Of a DNA stretch of 36,843 nucleotides, positions 7,345 through 16,982 are shown piece by piece (position 1 is the first letter of the stretch; each line of letters begins with the position of its first letter). The stretch is taken from the IMG/VR virus record IMGVR_UViG_2529292736_000005. One strand, 5' to 3'. The DNA is from a virus. Lineage: Duplodnaviria > Heunggongvirae > Uroviricota > Caudoviricetes. Below the pieces are notes generated by a model. It was given only the letters and a program-made list of their open reading frames with translations. It was not told the DNA's origin and did not search any database. The position numbers and the translations under genes are program-made.

Positions 7345-7995
7345 ATGAATGCACGAAAAGCGGTACTGGCAGACAATCCGGAATTGATCCTGCGTGTGCT
7401 ACAACTGAGATTTGACGAGTCACTGTCGTACCCGCGCATTTCTGCGCAGACCGGTATCAGCAAAACCGCCATTTTTTCTCTGGTGAGGCGATTTCACCAG
7501 GTATTCACTGACTGGCCTCTTTCCGGAGAATATTCCTGCGTGCAACTGGCCCGGGCTCTGTTCCCGGGGCGATACCCTTCAGCCCCGACAGTGACTCAGC
7601 CTGTGAAAACAGAGAAAATCCGCCGGAACCGATTTTCACCGGAGTTTAAATGGAGGCTTGTTCAGCAAACTCTTTTACCCGGTGCCTGTGTCGCACAAAT
7701 AGCTCGTGAGAACGGAATCAACGATAACCTGCTCTTTAACTGGCGGCATCTCTGGCGTAACGGCGGCCTGCAGCCGACCGGCGAACATGAAACATCGCTA
7801 CTTCCCGTGACGTTAACTCCGGAGCCGGATAATAAAATCCCGGCACCAGTGCAGATACCTGAACAGATAAATACACCGCCCGACAGTCTGTGCTGTGAGC
7901 TGGTTCTGCCGGCCGGAACTCTCAGGCTGAAAGGTGAACTGACACCGGCGTTATTACAGACACTTATCCGCGAAATGAAAGGGAGCAGCCACTAA
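7345..7995 (+). CDS. tnpA: IS66-family TnpA (orf1)
   Basis: ORF track; first ORF of a three-ORF IS66 layout. Confidence 0.75.
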   Translation: MNARKAVLADNPELILRVLQLRFDESLSYPRISAQTGISKTAIFSLVRRFHQVFTDWPLSGEYSCVQLARALFPGRYPSAPTVTQPVKTEKIRRNRFSPEFKWRLVQQTLLPGACVAQIARENGINDNLLFNWRHLWRNGGLQPTGEHETSLLPVTLTPEPDNKIPAPVQIPEQINTPPDSLCCELVLPAGTLRLKGELTPALLQTLIREMKGSSH

Positions 7996-8342
7996 TGATA
8001 TCTCTCCCTGCCGGTTCGCGTATCTGGCTGGTTGCCGGTATCACCGACATGCGAAATGGTTTTAACGGCCTGGCATCAAAAGTTCAGAACGTCCTGAAGG
8101 ATGACCCGTTCTCCGGGCATCTGTTCATCTTCCGCGGACGCCGGGGTGACCAGATAAAAGTGTTGTGGGCTGACAGTGACGGACTGTGCCTCTTCACCAA
8201 ACGCCTGGAGCGGGGCCGCTTCGTCTGGCCGGTTACCCGTGACGGCAAGGTGCACCTTACTCCGGCTCAGTTATCTATGCTTCTTGAAGGTATCAACTGG
8301 AAGCACCCGAAACGAACGGAACGCGCTGGCATCCGCATATAA
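7995..8342 (+). CDS. tnpB: IS66-family TnpB accessory protein (orf2)
   Basis: MISLPAGSRIWLVAGITDMRNGFNGLA... typical IS66 Orf2. Confidence 0.85.
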   Translation: MISLPAGSRIWLVAGITDMRNGFNGLASKVQNVLKDDPFSGHLFIFRGRRGDQIKVLWADSDGLCLFTKRLERGRFVWPVTRDGKVHLTPAQLSMLLEGINWKHPKRTERAGIRI

Positions 8343-8361
8343 CCCGTTGTAAAGTGAGGAT

Positions 8362-9933
8362 ATGGACACCTCACTTGCTCATGAGAACGCCCGCCTGCGG
8401 GCACTGTTGCAGACGCAACAGGACACCATACGCCAGATGGCTGAATACAACCGCCTGCTCTCACAGCGGGTGGCGGCTTATGCTTCCGAAATCAACCGGC
8501 TGAAGGCGCTGGTTGCGAAACTGCAACGTATGCAGTTCGGTAAAAGCTCAGAAAAACTTCGCGCTAAAACCGAACGGCAGATACAGGAAGCCCAGGAGCG
8601 AATCAGCGCACTTCAGGAAGAAATGGCGGAAACGCTGGGTGAGCAATATGACCCGGTACTGCCATCCGCCCTGCGCCAGTCTTCAGCCCGTAAGCCGTTA
8701 CCGGCCTCACTTCCCCGTGAAACCCGGGTCATCCGGCCGGAAGAGGAATGCTGCCCGGCCTGTGGTGGTGACCTCAGTCCTCTGGGGTGTGATGTGTCAG
8801 AGCAACTGGAGCTTATCAGCAGCGCTTTTAAGGTTATCGAAACACAACGTCCGAAACTGGCCTGTTGCCGGTGCGACCATATCGTGCAGGCACCAGTACC
8901 TTCAAAACCCATTGCACGCAGTTATGCCGGAGCGGGGCTTCTGGCTCATATCGTCACCGGGAAGTATGCAGACCATCTGCCGTTATACCGCCAGTCAGAA
9001 ATATACCTTCGTCAGGGCGTGGAACTGAGCCGCGCCACGCTGGGGCGCTGGACCGGTGCCGTTGCTGAACTGCTGGAGCCGCTGTATGACGTGCTGCGCC
9101 AGTATGTGCTGATGCCCGGTAAAGTCCATGCGGATGATATCCCCGTTCCGGTCCAGGAGCCGGGCAGTGGTAAAACAAGAACTGCCCGGCTGTGGGTCTA
9201 TGTCCGTGATGACCGTAACGCCGGTTCACAGATGCCCCCGGCGGTCTGGTTCGCGTACAGCCCGGACCGGAAAGGTATCCATCCACAGAATCACCTGGCC
9301 GGTTACAGCGGTGTGCTTCAGGCAGATGCTTACGGTGGTTACCGGGCGTTATACGAATCCGGCAGAATAACGGAAGCCGCGTGTATGGCCCATGCCCGGA
9401 GAAAAATCCACGATGTGCATGCAAGAGTGCCAACCGACATCACCACGGAAGCCCTGCAGCGTATCGGTGAACTGTATGTCATCGAGGCAGAAGTCTGGGG
9501 ATGTTCAGCAGAACAGCGTCTGGCAGCAAGAAAAGCCAGAGCGGCTCCACTGATGCAGTCACTGTATGACTGGATACAGGAACAGATGAAAACACTGTCG
9601 CGTCACTCGGATACGGCAAAAGCGTTCGCATACCTGCTGAAACAGTGGGAGGCCCTGAACGTGTACTGCAGTAATGGCTGGGTGGAAATCGACAACAACA
9701 TCGCAGAGAACGCCTTACGGGGAGTGGCCGTAGGCCGGAAAAACTGGCTCTTCGCGGGTTCCGACAGCGGTGGCGAACATGCGGCGGTGTTGTACTCGCT
9801 GATCGGCACATGCCGTCTGAACAATGTAGAGCCAGAAAAATGGCTGCGTTACGTTATTGAGCATATCCAGGACTGGCCGGCAAACCGGGTACGCGATCTG
9901 TTGCCCTGGAAAGTTGATCTGACTTCTCAGTAA
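8362..9933 (+). CDS. tnpC: IS66-family transposase TnpC (523 aa)
   Basis: N-terminal leucine-rich helix, CPACGG...CCRC zinc motif, DDE-type core. Confidence 0.85.
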
Positions 9934-9964
9934 ATATCAATACGGTTCTGGCGAGCCGCTTACG

Positions 9965-10312
9965 ATGAAAACACTGTCGCGTCACTCAGATACGGCAAAA
10001 GCGTTCGCATACCTGCTGAAACAGTGGGATGCACTGAACGTGTACTGCAGTAATGGCTGGGTGGAAATCGACAACAACATCGCAGAGAACGCCTTACGGG
10101 GAGTGGCCGTAGGCCGGAAAAACTGGATGTTCGCGGGTTCCGACAGCGGTGGTGAACATGCGGCGGTGTTGTACTCGCTGATCGGCACATGCCGTCTGAA
10201 CAATGTGGAGCCAGAAAAGTGGCTGCGCTACGTCATTGAACATATCCAGGACTGGCCGGCAAACCGGGTACGCGATCTGTTGCCCTGGAAAGTTGATCTG
10301 AGCTCTCAGTAA
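9965..10312 (+). pseudogene. 3' fragment of a second, diverged IS66-family tnpC
   Basis: 9964-10342 aligns with 9585-9963 with about 14 substitutions by eye (~96% identity). Confidence 0.7.
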
Positions 10313-13756: not shown

Positions 13757-14131
13757 ATGCGTATAGAGTTTGTTTTGCCTTACCCGCCGACGGTGAACAC
13801 CTACTGGCGACGTCGTGGCAGCACATATTTTGTATCAAAAGCCGGTGAGCGTTATCGCCGGGCTGTGGCGCTTATTGTTCGCCAGCAGCGGCTGAAATTA
13901 AGCCTGTCCGGAAGGCTGGCGATAAAGATTATTGCCGAGCCACCGGATAAGCGCCGCCGTGACCTGGACAATATTCTGAAAGCGCCGCTGGATGCGCTGA
14001 CGCATGCGGGGTTGCTAATGGACGATGAGCAGTTTGATGAAATCAATATCGTTCGTGCTCAGCCAGTATCTGGTGGACGTCTGGGGGTGAAGATTTACCC
14101 CATAATGCTTGCAGGGCAGGTCAAAAAATGA
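13757..14131 (+). CDS. rusA: Holliday junction resolvase RusA
   Basis: Conserved DKRRRDLDN motif and overall RusA-like length and composition. Confidence 0.85.
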   Translation: MRIEFVLPYPPTVNTYWRRRGSTYFVSKAGERYRRAVALIVRQQRLKLSLSGRLAIKIIAEPPDKRRRDLDNILKAPLDALTHAGLLMDDEQFDEINIVRAQPVSGGRLGVKIYPIMLAGQVKK

Positions 14132-14949
14132 AACTGGAAGATTTACCGAAATACTACTCCCCAAAATCCCCCGGCCTGACTGATGCATCGGCCTCAACGT
14201 CGAAAGATGCGCTGAGTATCACTGATGTGATGGCCGCGCAGGGCATGACACAGAATCGGGCTGAGATGGGGTTTTCTGCGTTCCTTGGGAAAATGGGCAT
14301 TAGTATGAATGACAGAGAGCGGGCAACAGAATTGCTGACAGAATATGCACTCAGTCGGTGTGATCGCGTGGCGGCGTTAAGAAAACTCCCGGCAGAAATA
14401 AAACCGGTAGTGATGCGCATTATGGCTTCGTACGCTTTTGAGGATTATGCCCGTAGCGCAGCGAGTAAAAAGCAGTGCCCTTGTTGCTATGGGGAAAAAT
14501 TTATTGAAAGCGTAGTTTTTACAAACAAGGTCCAGTATCCGGATGGTAAGCCGCCGGTATGGGCAAAGTGTACGAAAGGTGTGTATCCGTCTTACTGGGA
14601 AGAATGGAAAAAAGTCAGGGAGGTGGTAAAAGTTGCCTGTCCGGAGTGTGGCGGAAAGGGTGAGGTTTCCACCGCCTGTAAGGATTGCCGTGGGCGTGGT
14701 GTCGCCATTCATCGTGAAGAGTCGGTAAAACGTGGTATGCCTGTTATCAGAGACTGCCAGCGTTGTGGTGGTCGTGGCTGTGAAAGACTACCATCAACGG
14801 AGGCATTTAATGCCATATGCGAAGTGACGAGTGCTATCACGCTTGATACGTGGAAAAAATCAGTGAAACGCTTTTACGATACGTTGGTGGTTCGGTTTGA
14901 CATTGAAGAGGCATGGGCGGAGCGGCAGTTAAAGAGGGTAACGCGATAG
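14128..14949 (+). CDS. late antiterminator Q (QuuQ-like, zinc-binding)
   Basis: SPKSP...TDVMAAQGM...SYAFEDYARSAA pattern and multiple CxxC motifs resemble QuuQ-type Q proteins (recollection). Confidence 0.75.
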   Translation: MKLEDLPKYYSPKSPGLTDASASTSKDALSITDVMAAQGMTQNRAEMGFSAFLGKMGISMNDRERATELLTEYALSRCDRVAALRKLPAEIKPVVMRIMASYAFEDYARSAASKKQCPCCYGEKFIESVVFTNKVQYPDGKPPVWAKCTKGVYPSYWEEWKKVREVVKVACPECGGKGEVSTACKDCRGRGVAIHREESVKRGMPVIRDCQRCGGRGCERLPSTEAFNAICEVTSAITLDTWKKSVKRFYDTLVVRFDIEEAWAERQLKRVTR

Positions 14950-14954
14950 TGTTG

Positions 14955-14982
14955 TTGATTTTTCCCGAATCTGTGGTAAATT
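14955..14982 (+). promoter_or_regulatory. putative late promoter PR'
   Basis: TTGATT, 16-nt spacer, TGgTAAATT extended -10, immediately downstream of Q. Confidence 0.4.
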
Positions 14983-15031
14983 TGCTCTAACGATGGGCGT
15001 TTTATGCCTGACGTTAGAAGATTTTTTACAC

Positions 15032-15053
15032 CCCGCCGCCTGGCGGGTTTTTT
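15032..15053 (+). terminator. rho-independent terminator (tR'-like)
   Basis: CCCGCC-GCCT-GGCGGG stem-loop followed by TTTTTT. Confidence 0.55.
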
Positions 15054-15175
15054 ATGACTGAAATCGCGTCAGTACAGTAAACGCGCTGGTGGCGGTGAAT
15101 ACCTGTCTTTCAGCTTGCTGGCTTTTTCGACAAGAGTTATTGGTGTGTCACGTTAACCGGAAAAGGGAAAAAGAC

Positions 15176-15373
15176 ATGCTAAAACAGCAGGATATGACAG
15201 AAACCGCCAGAGTAGTGTTTAATGAATTAAGCGTTACCGAACCGGCGACAGTCGGGGAGATAGCGCAGAATACTTACCTTTCACGCGAACGCTGCCAGTT
15301 AATACTGGCCCAGCTGGTTATGGCGGGTCTGGCAGACTATCAGTTCGGTTGTTACAGACGCCTTCCGCAGTGA
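15176..15373 (+). CDS. small putative winged-helix DNA-binding protein (65 aa)
   Basis: Internal ATG after AAAGGGAAAAAG; sequence VGEIAQNTYLSRERCQLILAQL suggests an HTH. Confidence 0.45.
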   Translation: MLKQQDMTETARVVFNELSVTEPATVGEIAQNTYLSRERCQLILAQLVMAGLADYQFGCYRRLPQ

Positions 15374-15385
15374 AGGCTTTTTTAT
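15360..15385 (+). terminator. rho-independent terminator overlapping the stop of the winged-helix ORF
   Basis: GCCTTC-CGCAGT-GAAGGC stem-loop followed by TTTTTTATTT. Confidence 0.45.
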
Positions 15386-15401
15386 TTGTGGTAAATGGGC
15401 G

Positions 15402-15430
15402 GCTGGTGGGTGTTAGGGGCACCCACCAGC
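15402..15430. repeat. perfect 11-bp inverted repeat with 7-nt loop
   Basis: GCTGGTGGGTG-TTAGGGG-CACCCACCAGC. Confidence 0.6.
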
Positions 15431-15523
15431 CATCTGCTCATGCGTTGGGTTCACAAGCAAACCTCAGGCCCACTGCTTTGCGCAAAAGCAGAATGAGCCT
15501 ATCAGAGACAGGCTTAATGATCC

Positions 15524-16573
15524 ATGCTTAATACTGTAAAAATATCCAGTTGTGAGTTAATCAACGCCGACTGCCTGGAATTTATCCGGTCGTTACCCGA
15601 AAATTCTGTTGACCTGATAGTCACGGACCCGCCGTACTTTAAAGTGAAGCCTGAGGGCTGGGATAACCAGTGGAAGGGCGACGATGATTACCTGAAGTGG
15701 CTGGACCAGTGTCTGGCGCAGTTCTGGCGGGTGCTGAAACCTGCCGGAAGTCTTTACCTGTTCTGTGGTCATCGCCTGGCATCTGATATCGAAATCATGA
15801 TGCGTGAACGCTTCAGTGTGCTGAACCATATTATCTGGGCGAAGCCGTCCGGACGCTGGAACGGATGCAACAAGGAAAGCCTGCGGGCGTATTTCCCCGC
15901 CACAGAGCGCATTCTGTTCGCGGAACATTATCAGGGGCCGTATCGTCCGAAAGATGCCGGGTATGCGGCGAAGGGCAGTGCACTGAAACAGCATGTGATG
16001 GCCCCGCTGATTTCTTACTTTCGTGATGCGCGCGTGGCCCTGGGGATAACGGCAAAACAGATTGCAGATGCCACAGGAAAGAAAAACATGGTGTCGCACT
16101 GGTTCAGTGCCAGTCAGTGGCAGCTACCGAACGAAAGCGATTATCTGAAATTACAGTCGCTGTTTGCCCGGGTGGCAGAAGAGAAACATCAGCGCGGTGA
16201 ACTGGAAAAGCCCCACCACCAGCTGGTGGATACGTATACGTCACTGAACCGGCAGTATGTGGAGCTGCAGAGTGAATATAAGCATCTGCGGCGGTATTTT
16301 GGTGTGACGGCGCAGGTGCCGTACACGGATGTGTGGACACATAAACCGGTGCAGTTCTATCCCGGGAAACATCCGTGCGAAAAACCGGCAGAAATGCTGC
16401 AGCAGATAATCAGCGCAAGCAGTCGTCCGGGTGACCTGGTTGCAGATTTTTTTATGGGCTCAGGTTCAACGGTAAAAGCTGCACTGGCGCTCGGGCGTCG
16501 TGCGATTGGCGTTGAACTGGAGACCGGACGTTTTGAGCAGACAGTCAGGGAAGTTCAGGATTTAATCGTTTGA
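15524..16573 (+). CDS. DNA methyltransferase, beta-class N6-adenine/N4-cytosine type (349 aa)
   Basis: N-terminal DLIVTDPPY catalytic motif and C-terminal DFFMGSGST SAM-binding motif. Confidence 0.85.
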   Translation: MLNTVKISSCELINADCLEFIRSLPENSVDLIVTDPPYFKVKPEGWDNQWKGDDDYLKWLDQCLAQFWRVLKPAGSLYLFCGHRLASDIEIMMRERFSVLNHIIWAKPSGRWNGCNKESLRAYFPATERILFAEHYQGPYRPKDAGYAAKGSALKQHVMAPLISYFRDARVALGITAKQIADATGKKNMVSHWFSASQWQLPNESDYLKLQSLFARVAEEKHQRGELEKPHHQLVDTYTSLNRQYVELQSEYKHLRRYFGVTAQVPYTDVWTHKPVQFYPGKHPCEKPAEMLQQIISASSRPGDLVADFFMGSGSTVKAALALGRRAIGVELETGRFEQTVREVQDLIV

Positions 16574-16622: not shown

Positions 16623-16698
16623 GGCCCTTTAGCTCAGTGGTGAGAGCGAGCGACTCATAATCGCCAGGTCGCTGGTTCAAATCCAGCAAGGGCCACCA
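16623..16698 (+). tRNA. tRNA with CAU anticodon (Ile2-type; or Met)
   Basis: Cloverleaf folded by hand: acceptor GGCCCTT/AAGGGCC, loop CTCATAA, T-loop GGTTCAAATCC, 3' CCA. Confidence 0.8.
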
Positions 16699-16798
16699 TC
16701 ACAAACCGCCATTAGCTTATCAGGAAGAGCAGACGACACGATAACAGGGTTGTTGGTGCGGGGGCGGGTCCCCGATGGCGGTCCATTATCGGTATTCA

Positions 16799-16875
16799 GC
16801 GTTGTTAGCTCAGCCGGACAGAGCAATTGCCTTCTAAGCAATCGGTCACTGGTTCGAATCCAGTACAGCGCGCCA
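16799..16875 (+). tRNA. tRNA-Arg (UCU)
   Basis: Acceptor GCGTTGT/ACAGCGC, anticodon loop CTTCTAA, T-arm ACTGG-TTCGAAT-CCAGT, 3' GCCA. Confidence 0.8.
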
Positions 16876-16982
16876 TATTCATTCTTCCAGATTCCTTTCG
16901 GCAGAGCCTTATACTGAAATATACCTGGCTCAGGATATTGTTGAAAATATTATATGTTTGTCAAAAATAAAAGTTCTGTTAA

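Follow-up and report, generated by a model that had tools for sequence, protein, structure and literature searches.

The window, as we call the whole stretch analysed here, is 36,843 nucleotides (nt) of the tailed-phage record IMGVR_UViG_2529292736_000005 and is a lambdoid (Rac/Qin-like) prophage. We consider the start of its late operon, where all features lie on the plus strand. The gene of the antiterminator Q (14128-14949) is followed by a candidate late promoter PR' (14955-14994), a candidate terminator tR' (15032-15053), a conserved block (15114-15151), an open reading frame (ORF) of 65 amino acids (aa; 15176-15373), a second candidate terminator (15360-15385), a perfect inverted repeat, and the gene of an adenine DNA methyltransferase (15524-16573). 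All elements listed in the original prediction, which was made from the letters of the DNA alone, are present, with small corrections. However, the repeat, which had been likened to the operator of a controller protein, appears to belong to a structured RNA leader of the methyltransferase gene.

The repeat is indeed perfect, but it has 12 base pairs (bp; 15401-15412 with 15420-15431, loop of 7 nt) rather than the predicted 11, the 11-bp version lying inside. Nucleotides 15395-15400 (AUGGGC) pair with 15436-15441 (GCUCAU) to form an outer helix around it. Together the helices of 6 and 12 bp, separated by a 4-nt internal loop, form hairpin H2 (15395-15441; -33.7 kcal/mol, z = -6.2). Over 50 sequences both helices are 98-99% paired; four pairs change on both sides, and one-sided changes convert G-C to G-U. 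In the phages carrying Shiga toxin (Stx) genes the 3' arm CACCCACCAGCC is replaced by CACTCACCAGCC or CACCTGCCAGCC and the 5' arm is constant. These changes turn G-C or U-A into G-U or U-G on the plus strand, and are mismatches in DNA or on the other strand. In Providencia both arms of the repeat change jointly (GACTGTAAAGGTG with CACCCTTACAGTC). The 3' strand of the outer helix also varies by wobble (GCUCAU, GCCCGU) with pairing kept. The plus-strand wobbles and the compensatory changes in the repeat indicate that it acts as RNA. Conservation and covariation thus identify it as the inner stem of a predicted leader-RNA hairpin and not as an operator.

The candidate leader covers about 135 nt. 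Firstly, there is hairpin 1, which is the second terminator. Secondly, there is a single-stranded GUGRAAAUGGGCGG motif, followed by H2. Finally, covariance modelling, covariation and folding point to a domain P1-P2-P3 (15448-15523). Its basal helix P1a (15448-15453 with 15518-15523) covers the six nucleotides before the AUG and abuts it; P1b (15455-15458 with 15512-15515), P2 (15467-15472 with 15494-15499) and P3 (15473-15479 with 15485-15491) follow inwards. A covariance model, R1, was built from the whole intergenic region, and 51 loci were realigned to it. In the window it matches 15390-15535 with 134.8 bits. Every locus has one match, of 76-174 bits, always abutting the methyltransferase ATG. 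The cells of the model are paired in 95.5% of cases, compared with 29-43% when the 3' partners are slid. Two-sided changes are seen in eleven pairs; shuffled alignments have 4.0 +/- 1.2, and none of 500 shuffles reaches 11. Four of the eleven are in the repeat helix and five in the long-range helix P1.

The leader belongs to the methyltransferase gene, and the association is exclusive. Among 120 metagenomic loci found by the leader pattern, a methyltransferase gene lies directly downstream in all 112 that have enough sequence. Between the other late genes, both in the window and in the fetched loci, the model has no match. No family of Rfam 15 matches the leader at the gathering score; the best is P26, on the minus strand, with 24.2 bits against the required 36, and amounts to a hairpin match only.

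Several other identities of this region were considered and rejected. A leader peptide starting at ATG 15395 would have 33 aa in the window, but in most genera it stops after seven codons (MGGWWVL*) or differs, so that no ORF is conserved. A switch in which GCUCAU (15436-15441) pairs with AUGAGC (15493-15498), or AUGGGC with GCCCA, has no covariation support; in Providencia GCUCAU is replaced by GCCCGU, and the alternative partner does not change to match. None of the known small RNAs (sRNAs) AgvB, AsxR, StxS and Pas map to the leader, the Pas/STnc100 element being at 17572-17761.

In Xenorhabdus and Photorhabdus (loci L052-L085) the 100 nt or so upstream of the methyltransferase gene contain hairpin 1 at the ORF stop, a GGUGAAAUG motif, a variable, GC-rich hairpin, terminator-like where a T-run follows it, as it often does, and a small GGCUUUCCAGAGAGCC hairpin before the start codon.

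Hairpin 1 has the form of an intrinsic terminator, with a stem at 15360-15377 followed by T6 (-8.9 kcal/mol). As the original prediction had it, the stop codon of the small ORF is inside: the TGA (15371-15373) occupies the loop and the 3' arm. Other genera, and most loci that lack the ORF, likewise have a hairpin with covarying stems at this place. In two loci (L012 and L023) tR' itself takes its place, joined directly to the leader. Thus a terminator or hairpin stands just 5' of the leader in almost all contexts examined, be it after the ORF, as an ORF remnant, or as tR'; locus L086 has no obvious one.

The original prediction compared this arrangement with controller (C) proteins and their C-boxes. 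The 65-aa protein would bind the repeat as its operator and switch a methyltransferase promoter, in which a second copy of the motif TGTGGTAAAT would be the extended -10 element. The small ORF does have a DNA-binding fold and is tightly linked to the methyltransferase gene downstream, a perfect 12-bp repeat lies between them, and a 10-mer is common to this region and the -10 region of PR'. Nevertheless we consider this explanation highly improbable, as the analogy fails for the fold, for the motif and position of the box, and for the restriction gene. C proteins are helix-turn-helix (HTH) proteins of the XRE type. The small protein is indeed predicted to be a winged-helix protein, as originally proposed, but not one of the XRE type: none of 24 diverse members of its family has an HTH_3 match. 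The C-box-like motif GACTNNNAGTC has six matches in the window with at most one mismatch, where 8.4 are expected; none of them is exact and none is intergenic, and the sole match in this region (15335-15345) is inside the small ORF. No restriction endonuclease domain of Pfam was found in the neighbouring genes or in the 20 other window ORFs scanned. The repeat is 3' of the ORF and beyond a terminator, not in an upstream promoter, and it varies as an RNA helix on the plus strand. Moreover, identical small proteins occur with differing stems (loci L084 and L087), and the repeat is unchanged where the ORF is absent.

The recurrence of TGTGGTAAAT itself holds: the window contains exactly two copies, at 14972-14981 and 15387-15396, where 0.07 are expected for that word. 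However, the word was chosen post hoc, and the same 1.8 kb contain an unrelated exact 10-mer repeat (family D18). This form of the motif is confined to the E. coli lineage, with TGTGAAAAT, TGTGGAAAT or TGTGGAAT at variable spacing elsewhere, and the PR' copy is missing in phages with other Q types. We treat the recurrence of the word as a coincidence or as a shared -10-like composition. An internal promoter at the second copy also disagrees with the leader structure. The covarying outer helix strand 15395-15400 overlaps the proposed -10 element and continues directly after it, and would be missing from the transcript; since the outer helix needs these nucleotides, such a transcript cannot be the source of the leader RNA.

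The position of P1 suggests a role in translation initiation. In P1a, GGUYCA pairs with UGAUCC, which occupies positions -6 to -1 of the methyltransferase gene. There is no Shine-Dalgarno box of the GGAGG type in front of this gene. UGAUCC is complementary to GGAUCA at the 3' end of 16S rRNA; as the only element resembling a Shine-Dalgarno box, it would be hidden by its pairing in P1a. The minimum free energy of the 147-nt leader is -63.4 kcal/mol (z = -4.0), and in the corresponding structure of the window the AUG is paired. In the 39 loci folded, most of positions -12 to -9 and -6 to -2 tend to be base-paired (unpaired probability 0.14-0.34). The computed occlusion is modest: the mean unpaired probability of positions -12 to +3 is 0.35, compared with 0.43 when the upstream sequence is shuffled, and it is lower in 29 of the 39 loci.

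One possibility is that the leader has no translational role and serves RNA processing or stability only. H2 would then separate segments of the late mRNA or stabilise them, by RNase III cleavage or as a protective hairpin, in the manner of T7 and lambda. With about 18 bp of irregular duplex and an asymmetric internal loop, H2 resembles the RNase III substrates of phages; the modest occlusion of the start site also fits. On the other hand, most compensatory changes are in P1, which ends at the AUG, and the element occurs only before this gene and not between other late genes. We therefore think it unlikely that processing is the whole explanation; a role in processing would not preclude translational control.

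The small ORF is a real gene, tightly linked with the methyltransferase gene. Eighty species-level loci, ranging from Escherichia to Xenorhabdus, Photorhabdus, Providencia and Morganella, were found via the methyltransferase, and 77 of them have enough upstream sequence for the ORF to be counted. A homologue of 62-67 aa (34-98% identity; consensus MLKQQDMTETA...RCQLILTQLVMAGL...) is directly 5' of the methyltransferase gene in 61 of these 77. The ORF is also present in 74 of 75 IMG/VR loci and in 105 of the 112 metagenomic loci. In the other direction, the methyltransferase gene is 3' of the ORF in 72 of 72 IMG/VR loci, a sample in which all sequences are about 98% identical to the query. The median ratio of nonsynonymous to synonymous substitution rates (dN/dS) is 0.11. 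As a narrow family it comprises 428 clusters in a set of 5.8 billion sequences, and all members among the 120 listed are short.

An AlphaFold2 model based on a 65-sequence alignment (pLDDT 92; a run with 26 sequences, pLDDT 62, was set aside) predicts helix 9-16, a short strand, helices 26-33 and 37-49, and a beta-hairpin at 53-62, that is, the order alpha1-beta-alpha2-alpha3-beta-hairpin of a winged helix. Foldseek matches this model to the winged helices of MarR, OhrR and SarZ (query TM-score 0.8-0.87), to IclR, to the N-terminal domains of O-methyltransferases, and to SelB. No Pfam family matches the window protein at the gathering score. Over the 24 diverse members only winged-helix families are found, DprA_WH in 13 and TrmB in 12. 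Profile searches against PDB and Pfam gave no likeness to the winged helices that read N6-methyladenine (m6A), namely DpnI and the N-terminal domain of Mrr.

The small ORF is absent from 13 species-level loci. They retain an intact methyltransferase gene, the whole leader and the repeat, and their leader scores (112-173 bits, median about 164) are the same as in loci with the ORF. As the leader and the methyltransferase are unchanged there, the small protein is not an obligatory activator. The best reading is that it is a co-transcribed, tightly linked accessory, dispensable for the leader and for the methyltransferase. It may modulate the leader, regulate its own expression via the block 15114-15151, or act on DNA alongside the methyltransferase. 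A toxin-antitoxin pair, with the winged helix as antitoxin and the methyltransferase as toxin, was judged unlikely: a structured spacer of 150 nt and a terminator lie between the two genes, and some loci have an intact methyltransferase gene and no ORF.

These loci also bear on a possible analogy with the com-mom genes of phage Mu. Mu Com is a zinc-finger RNA-binding activator needed for translation of mom. By analogy, the winged-helix protein would bind the leader RNA, for example at the invariant AAUGGGCGGCUGG strand or at the H2 apex GUGUUR..GCAC, and open or close P1, so that translation would need the protein or be limited by it. The layout is the same, with a small ORF followed by an mRNA structure, here a predicted one, over the start of a harmful late modification enzyme. 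The 5' strand and apex of H2 are conserved beyond the needs of pairing, and the linkage is tight. Winged helices can bind RNA hairpins, and the complex of SelB with SECIS (2pjp) is among the fold matches (query TM-score 0.69). However, the same leader and an intact methyltransferase gene are found without the ORF in the 13 species-level loci and in 7 of the 112 metagenomic ones, and the leader scores kept there mean that the protein cannot be an obligatory activator. Besides, Com is a zinc finger, whereas the window protein has only two conserved cysteines. The fold search does not tell winged helices that bind DNA from those that bind RNA. Thus we regard this explanation as doubtful.

The block upstream of the small ORF (15114-15151, consensus CTTGCTG-N10-CAGAGTTATCTGTATGTCAC) emerged from the cross-genus alignment. 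It is conserved from Escherichia to Xenorhabdus and Providencia at a fixed place, always after a terminator. Readings of the block as a promoter, a sigma-E site, a CRP site or an RNA hairpin were tried, and none fits all genera. If it were nevertheless the cassette's own promoter and operator, the cassette would be an autonomous moron, independent of Q, whose winged-helix protein regulates itself in the manner of an antitoxin. The conservation of the block would be explained, as well as the occurrence of the cassette behind various Q types, including cases where the Q type of the query was not detected. Small winged-helix proteins are usually DNA-binding repressors, and the DNA downstream of PR' is a known site of moron insertion (PMC4104026). 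Against this, the block is a poor match to sigma-70 promoters (TTGCTG-17-TATTGG or TATCTG, with G at the last -10 position) and is missed by the promoter scan. The second terminator would still stop transcription before the methyltransferase gene unless antitermination occurs, and the methyltransferase is silent in lysogens (PMC5778455, PMC6602927). Finally, loci with neither ORF nor block keep the methyltransferase gene and the leader. We find an autonomous cassette rather unlikely.

The methyltransferase (349 aa) matches PF01555 over residues 29-340 (1.8e-44), and M.RsrI, CcrM and MboIIA are its relatives in PDB. The beta-class assignment of the original prediction agrees with the order of its motifs, DPPY at residues 35-38 (15626-15637) preceding the FxGxG motif FMGSG at 310-314 (16451-16465). 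About 94% of positions (330 of 350) are identical to M.EcoGII, whose sequence was machine-read from the PDF of Suppl. Table S1 of PMC11551740, so that a few mismatches may be reading errors. By this similarity the enzyme is assigned to the M.EcoGI/M.EcoGII family of N6-adenine methyltransferases. M.EcoGII methylates adenine whatever the sequence context; it is encoded by a prophage, its host does not express it, and constitutive expression is harmful (PMC5778455). The same study names the enzyme of phage 1720a-02, which matches the window at 94.8% nucleotide identity, as a close relative. Homologues of 92-93% amino-acid similarity, listed as 'nonspecific', gave no methylation signal in two lysogens of Shiga-toxin-producing E. 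coli (PMC6602927). By extrapolation, the window enzyme may likewise methylate adenine in any context.

The proximity of the methyltransferase gene to Q in a late operon and the lack of an adjacent restriction gene, both part of the original prediction, are borne out. The Q gene is directly upstream, and the neighbours are Q, tRNA and esterase genes, with the same layout, lacking a restriction gene, in relatives. No restriction endonuclease domain of Pfam was found in the immediate neighbours or in 20 other window ORFs; as 7 of these have no Pfam match at all, one may have escaped detection.

Transcription of the cassette is likely to depend on Q. The Q protein has 273 aa and is of the quuQ type (PF03589 Antiterm, 6.3e-51; phrog_127). 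A gene of E. coli 55989 is 98.5% identical to it and is named 'antitermination protein' in RefSeq. In addition to the PF03589 domain, the window Q contains a zinc-finger region of the DnaJ type, CxxCxGxG (E = 8.8e-6, below the Pfam cut-off). The Q proteins of phiP27 and 1720a-02, which precede the same cassette, have about 126 aa.

The putative PR' proposed originally at 14955-14982 is supported by its similarity to PR' of lambda. It consists of a -35 box TTGATT (14955-14960), a 16-nt spacer with TG at 14974-14975, and a -10 box TAAATT (14977-14982). A simple promoter scan misses it (score 8/12). Lambda PR' has the form TTGACT-17-TAAATT-TGACTC-AACGATGGG and the window TTGATT-16-TAAATT-TGCTCT-AACGATGGG. 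The layout TAAATT-N6-AACGATGGG is identical, and 20 of 25 positions agree from the -10 box through AACGATGGG (GGTAAATTTGCTCTAACGATGGG versus GGTAAATTTGACTCAACGATGGG). The element AACGAT is at 14989-14994. In lambda, it occupies +1 to +6 and is the -10-like element that pauses the sigma-70 holoenzyme for Q loading. By analogy, the window transcript would start near 14989, with AACGAT as the candidate pause element. PR' is kept only in loci that share the Q type of the window (alignment A1), and the homology among phages with differing Q types starts at tR'.

A terminator resembling tR' had been noted at 15032-15053, and both the terminator scan and folding agree, with a stem at 15032-15047 followed by T6 (-12.6 kcal/mol, z = -2.9). 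Transcripts from PR' would end there as a short RNA of about 65 nt, from 14989 to approximately 15053. According to PMC7547250, PR' is always active and is terminated during lysogeny, yielding a short RNA.

Our preferred explanation, which we hold to be probable, is that the late operon starts with a three-part cassette consisting of the winged-helix ORF, the RNA leader and an enzyme of the M.EcoGII type, that Q gates its transcription, and that the leader is a second, post-transcriptional lock. PR' would fire constitutively, as in lambda and the Stx phages. Without Q, transcripts would end at tR' as the RNA of about 65 nt, and any that read through would meet hairpin 1 where the small ORF ends. 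During lytic growth Q would load at the AACGAT pause and RNA polymerase would pass both terminators, so that the winged-helix protein and the methyltransferase would be expressed jointly with the tRNAs and with the genes of lysis and of the head. The methyltransferase would then modify adenines of the progeny DNA in any context and protect it from many restriction systems, and it would be off in the lysogen, where it is harmful. The structure suggests that P1a of the leader holds down or conditions translation initiation. Candidates for opening the leader are cleavage of H2 by RNase III, co-transcriptional folding, and a protein.

Several points speak against this scheme. The dependence on Q, the start site and the terminator efficiencies are all extrapolated from lambda and the Stx phages. 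The window Q, with its PF03589 domain and DnaJ-type region, is not lambda Q, so that the lambda binding site may not apply. The covarying pairs were counted on related sequences, in an alignment that had been fitted to the model. The 5' strand AAUGGGCGGCUGG of H2 is almost invariant, so that its conservation may be partly sequence-specific, as for protein binding. The leader of Xenorhabdus and Photorhabdus is shorter and different, and R1 detects it weakly. The predicted occlusion of the start site is modest, as given above. Lastly, the non-specificity of the enzyme is carried over from a homologue of 94% identity, and several substitutions fall in the central target-recognition region.

A stronger proposal, which we put forward only tentatively, is that the leader represents a new class of cis-regulatory RNA of the M.EcoGII-family genes, a conditional switch that is opened late at P1. 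The winged-helix protein would be its partner in trans or a reader of the methylated product. The signal opening P1 might be this protein, cleavage of H2 by RNase III, or a small ligand such as S-adenosylmethionine or S-adenosylhomocysteine. Such a switch would keep a promiscuous, host-toxic methyltransferase of DNA and RNA adenines off until late infection.

Two phage tRNA genes follow the methyltransferase gene in the same transcription unit (16623-16875), as found by ARAGORN, Rfam and the annotation of related prophages. One has the anticodon CAT and is annotated as tRNA-Ile in relatives, and the other is tRNA-Arg (TCT). E. coli 55989 and several Stx2 phages have three tRNA genes (ileZ, argN and argO), whereas the window has only two. 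In many Stx2 phages and in phiP27 the cassette lies between Q and the tRNA and stx genes. The corresponding slot of the window, 16900-18300, is free of toxin genes. It contains a 118-aa ORF (16983-17339) and, on the minus strand, a 108-aa ORF (17796-18122), neither with a Pfam match above threshold; phage Stx2_EH1910 has a gene annotated iraM at the equivalent place. The sRNA STnc100 (RF02076) matches 17572-17761 on the plus strand (132 bits, E = 5e-30), just 5' of a DUF1737/SASA esterase gene (18368-20236). STnc100 has been linked to the prophage PasD sRNAs in a 2026 preprint. Holin and lysozyme genes lie further downstream of the cassette.

A Pfam scan of the ORFs in the early region revealed YdaS/YdaT, a ParE toxin, DUF968, RusA and an IS66 insertion. 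The IS66-family element (7345-10312) contains an HTH_Tnp_1 ORF, TnpB_IS66 and DDE_Tnp_IS66; a further DDE fragment in it (9965-10312) is truncated.

No complete E. coli genome contains positions 1-25000 of the window as a whole, the best match having 75% coverage and 96% identity. The segment from Q to the methyltransferase gene is 99.8% identical in E. coli 55989 and NCTC86. The patchy match of the window to genomes is typical lambdoid mosaicism.

The gene content of the cassette is ordinary and was already known. The literature searched on M.EcoGII and M.EcoGI describes the enzyme, but not the upstream ORF, the leader or the Q context. Two things appear to be new: the structured leader dedicated to this gene, which neither Rfam nor this literature contains, and the winged-helix gene as a conserved partner. 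The enzyme is of practical interest, since M.EcoGII is a widely used tool for non-specific m6A labelling. How prophages keep it silent is a matter of conjecture in the published descriptions found (discussion of PMC5778455). The cassette is also common: the 1.7-kb module is present in 2463 of 5426 complete E. coli genomes (45%), often in several copies (at most eight per genome), and in many Shiga-toxin phages it is directly 5' of stx. The scheme proposed here is testable, with two terminators that require antitermination by Q, a dedicated leader over the start site, and a partner gene that was previously ignored. If true, it would account for the silence in lysogens and would predict that lambdoid and Stx phages counter restriction broadly by hypermethylated virion DNA; the catalogue of RNA motifs would also gain a new entry.

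Among the known systems, the enzyme is closest to M.EcoGII and M.EcoGI (REBASE; EGT69837.1; E. coli O104:H4 C227-11). Like M.EcoGII, the window enzyme has 349 aa and the motif order DPPY, target-recognition domain, FxGxG, and is a prophage-borne orphan. The window copy differs from M.EcoGII by about 20 substitutions, several of them in the central target-recognition region.

The small protein shares its topology with stand-alone and N-terminal winged helices (MarR/OhrR/SarZ, the N-terminus of IclR, the C-terminal winged helix of DprA, and the dimerisation winged helix of O-methyltransferases; TM-score 0.65-0.87), and its weak Pfam matches are to DprA_WH, TrmB and HTH_20. Unlike those proteins, it has only 65 aa and no dimerisation helices. 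The C systems (C.PvuII, C.AhdI, C.Esp1396I) likewise have a small ORF with a DNA-binding fold beside a methyltransferase gene and an inverted repeat nearby. However, the fold here is a winged helix and not the XRE-type five-helix HTH, the repeat is 3' of the ORF and changes in the manner of an RNA helix, neither a C-box consensus nor, among the window ORFs scanned, a restriction gene was found, and the ORF is dispensable for the repeat.

With com-mom of Mu, the unit shares a late, host-toxic modification gene that follows an ORF of about 62-65 aa and an mRNA structure, here only predicted to cover the start. The protein here, however, is a winged helix and not a zinc finger, and it is absent from about 6-20% of loci in which the leader is unchanged. 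Because it lacks a zinc finger and the ORF is dispensable, the unit is not a member of the com-mom system.

The closest counterpart of the upstream part is the PR'-qut-tR' unit of lambda, which yields 6S RNA, and its equivalent in the Stx phages, which yields StxS. In all of them the Q gene is followed by a promoter of the constitutive type with a -10 box TAAATT and AACGAT at +1, and by an intrinsic terminator, and a short terminated RNA is expected. In contrast to lambda, the window Q is of another family (PF03589, 273 aa, with the CxxCxGxG region), and the spacer between the -35 and -10 boxes, to which Q binds in lambda, has an unrelated sequence. A length of about 65 nt is expected for the short RNA, compared with 194 nt in lambda, and the window has a second terminator 330 nt further downstream. 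Thus we class the transcription unit as a Q unit of the lambda type whose Q comes from a different family.

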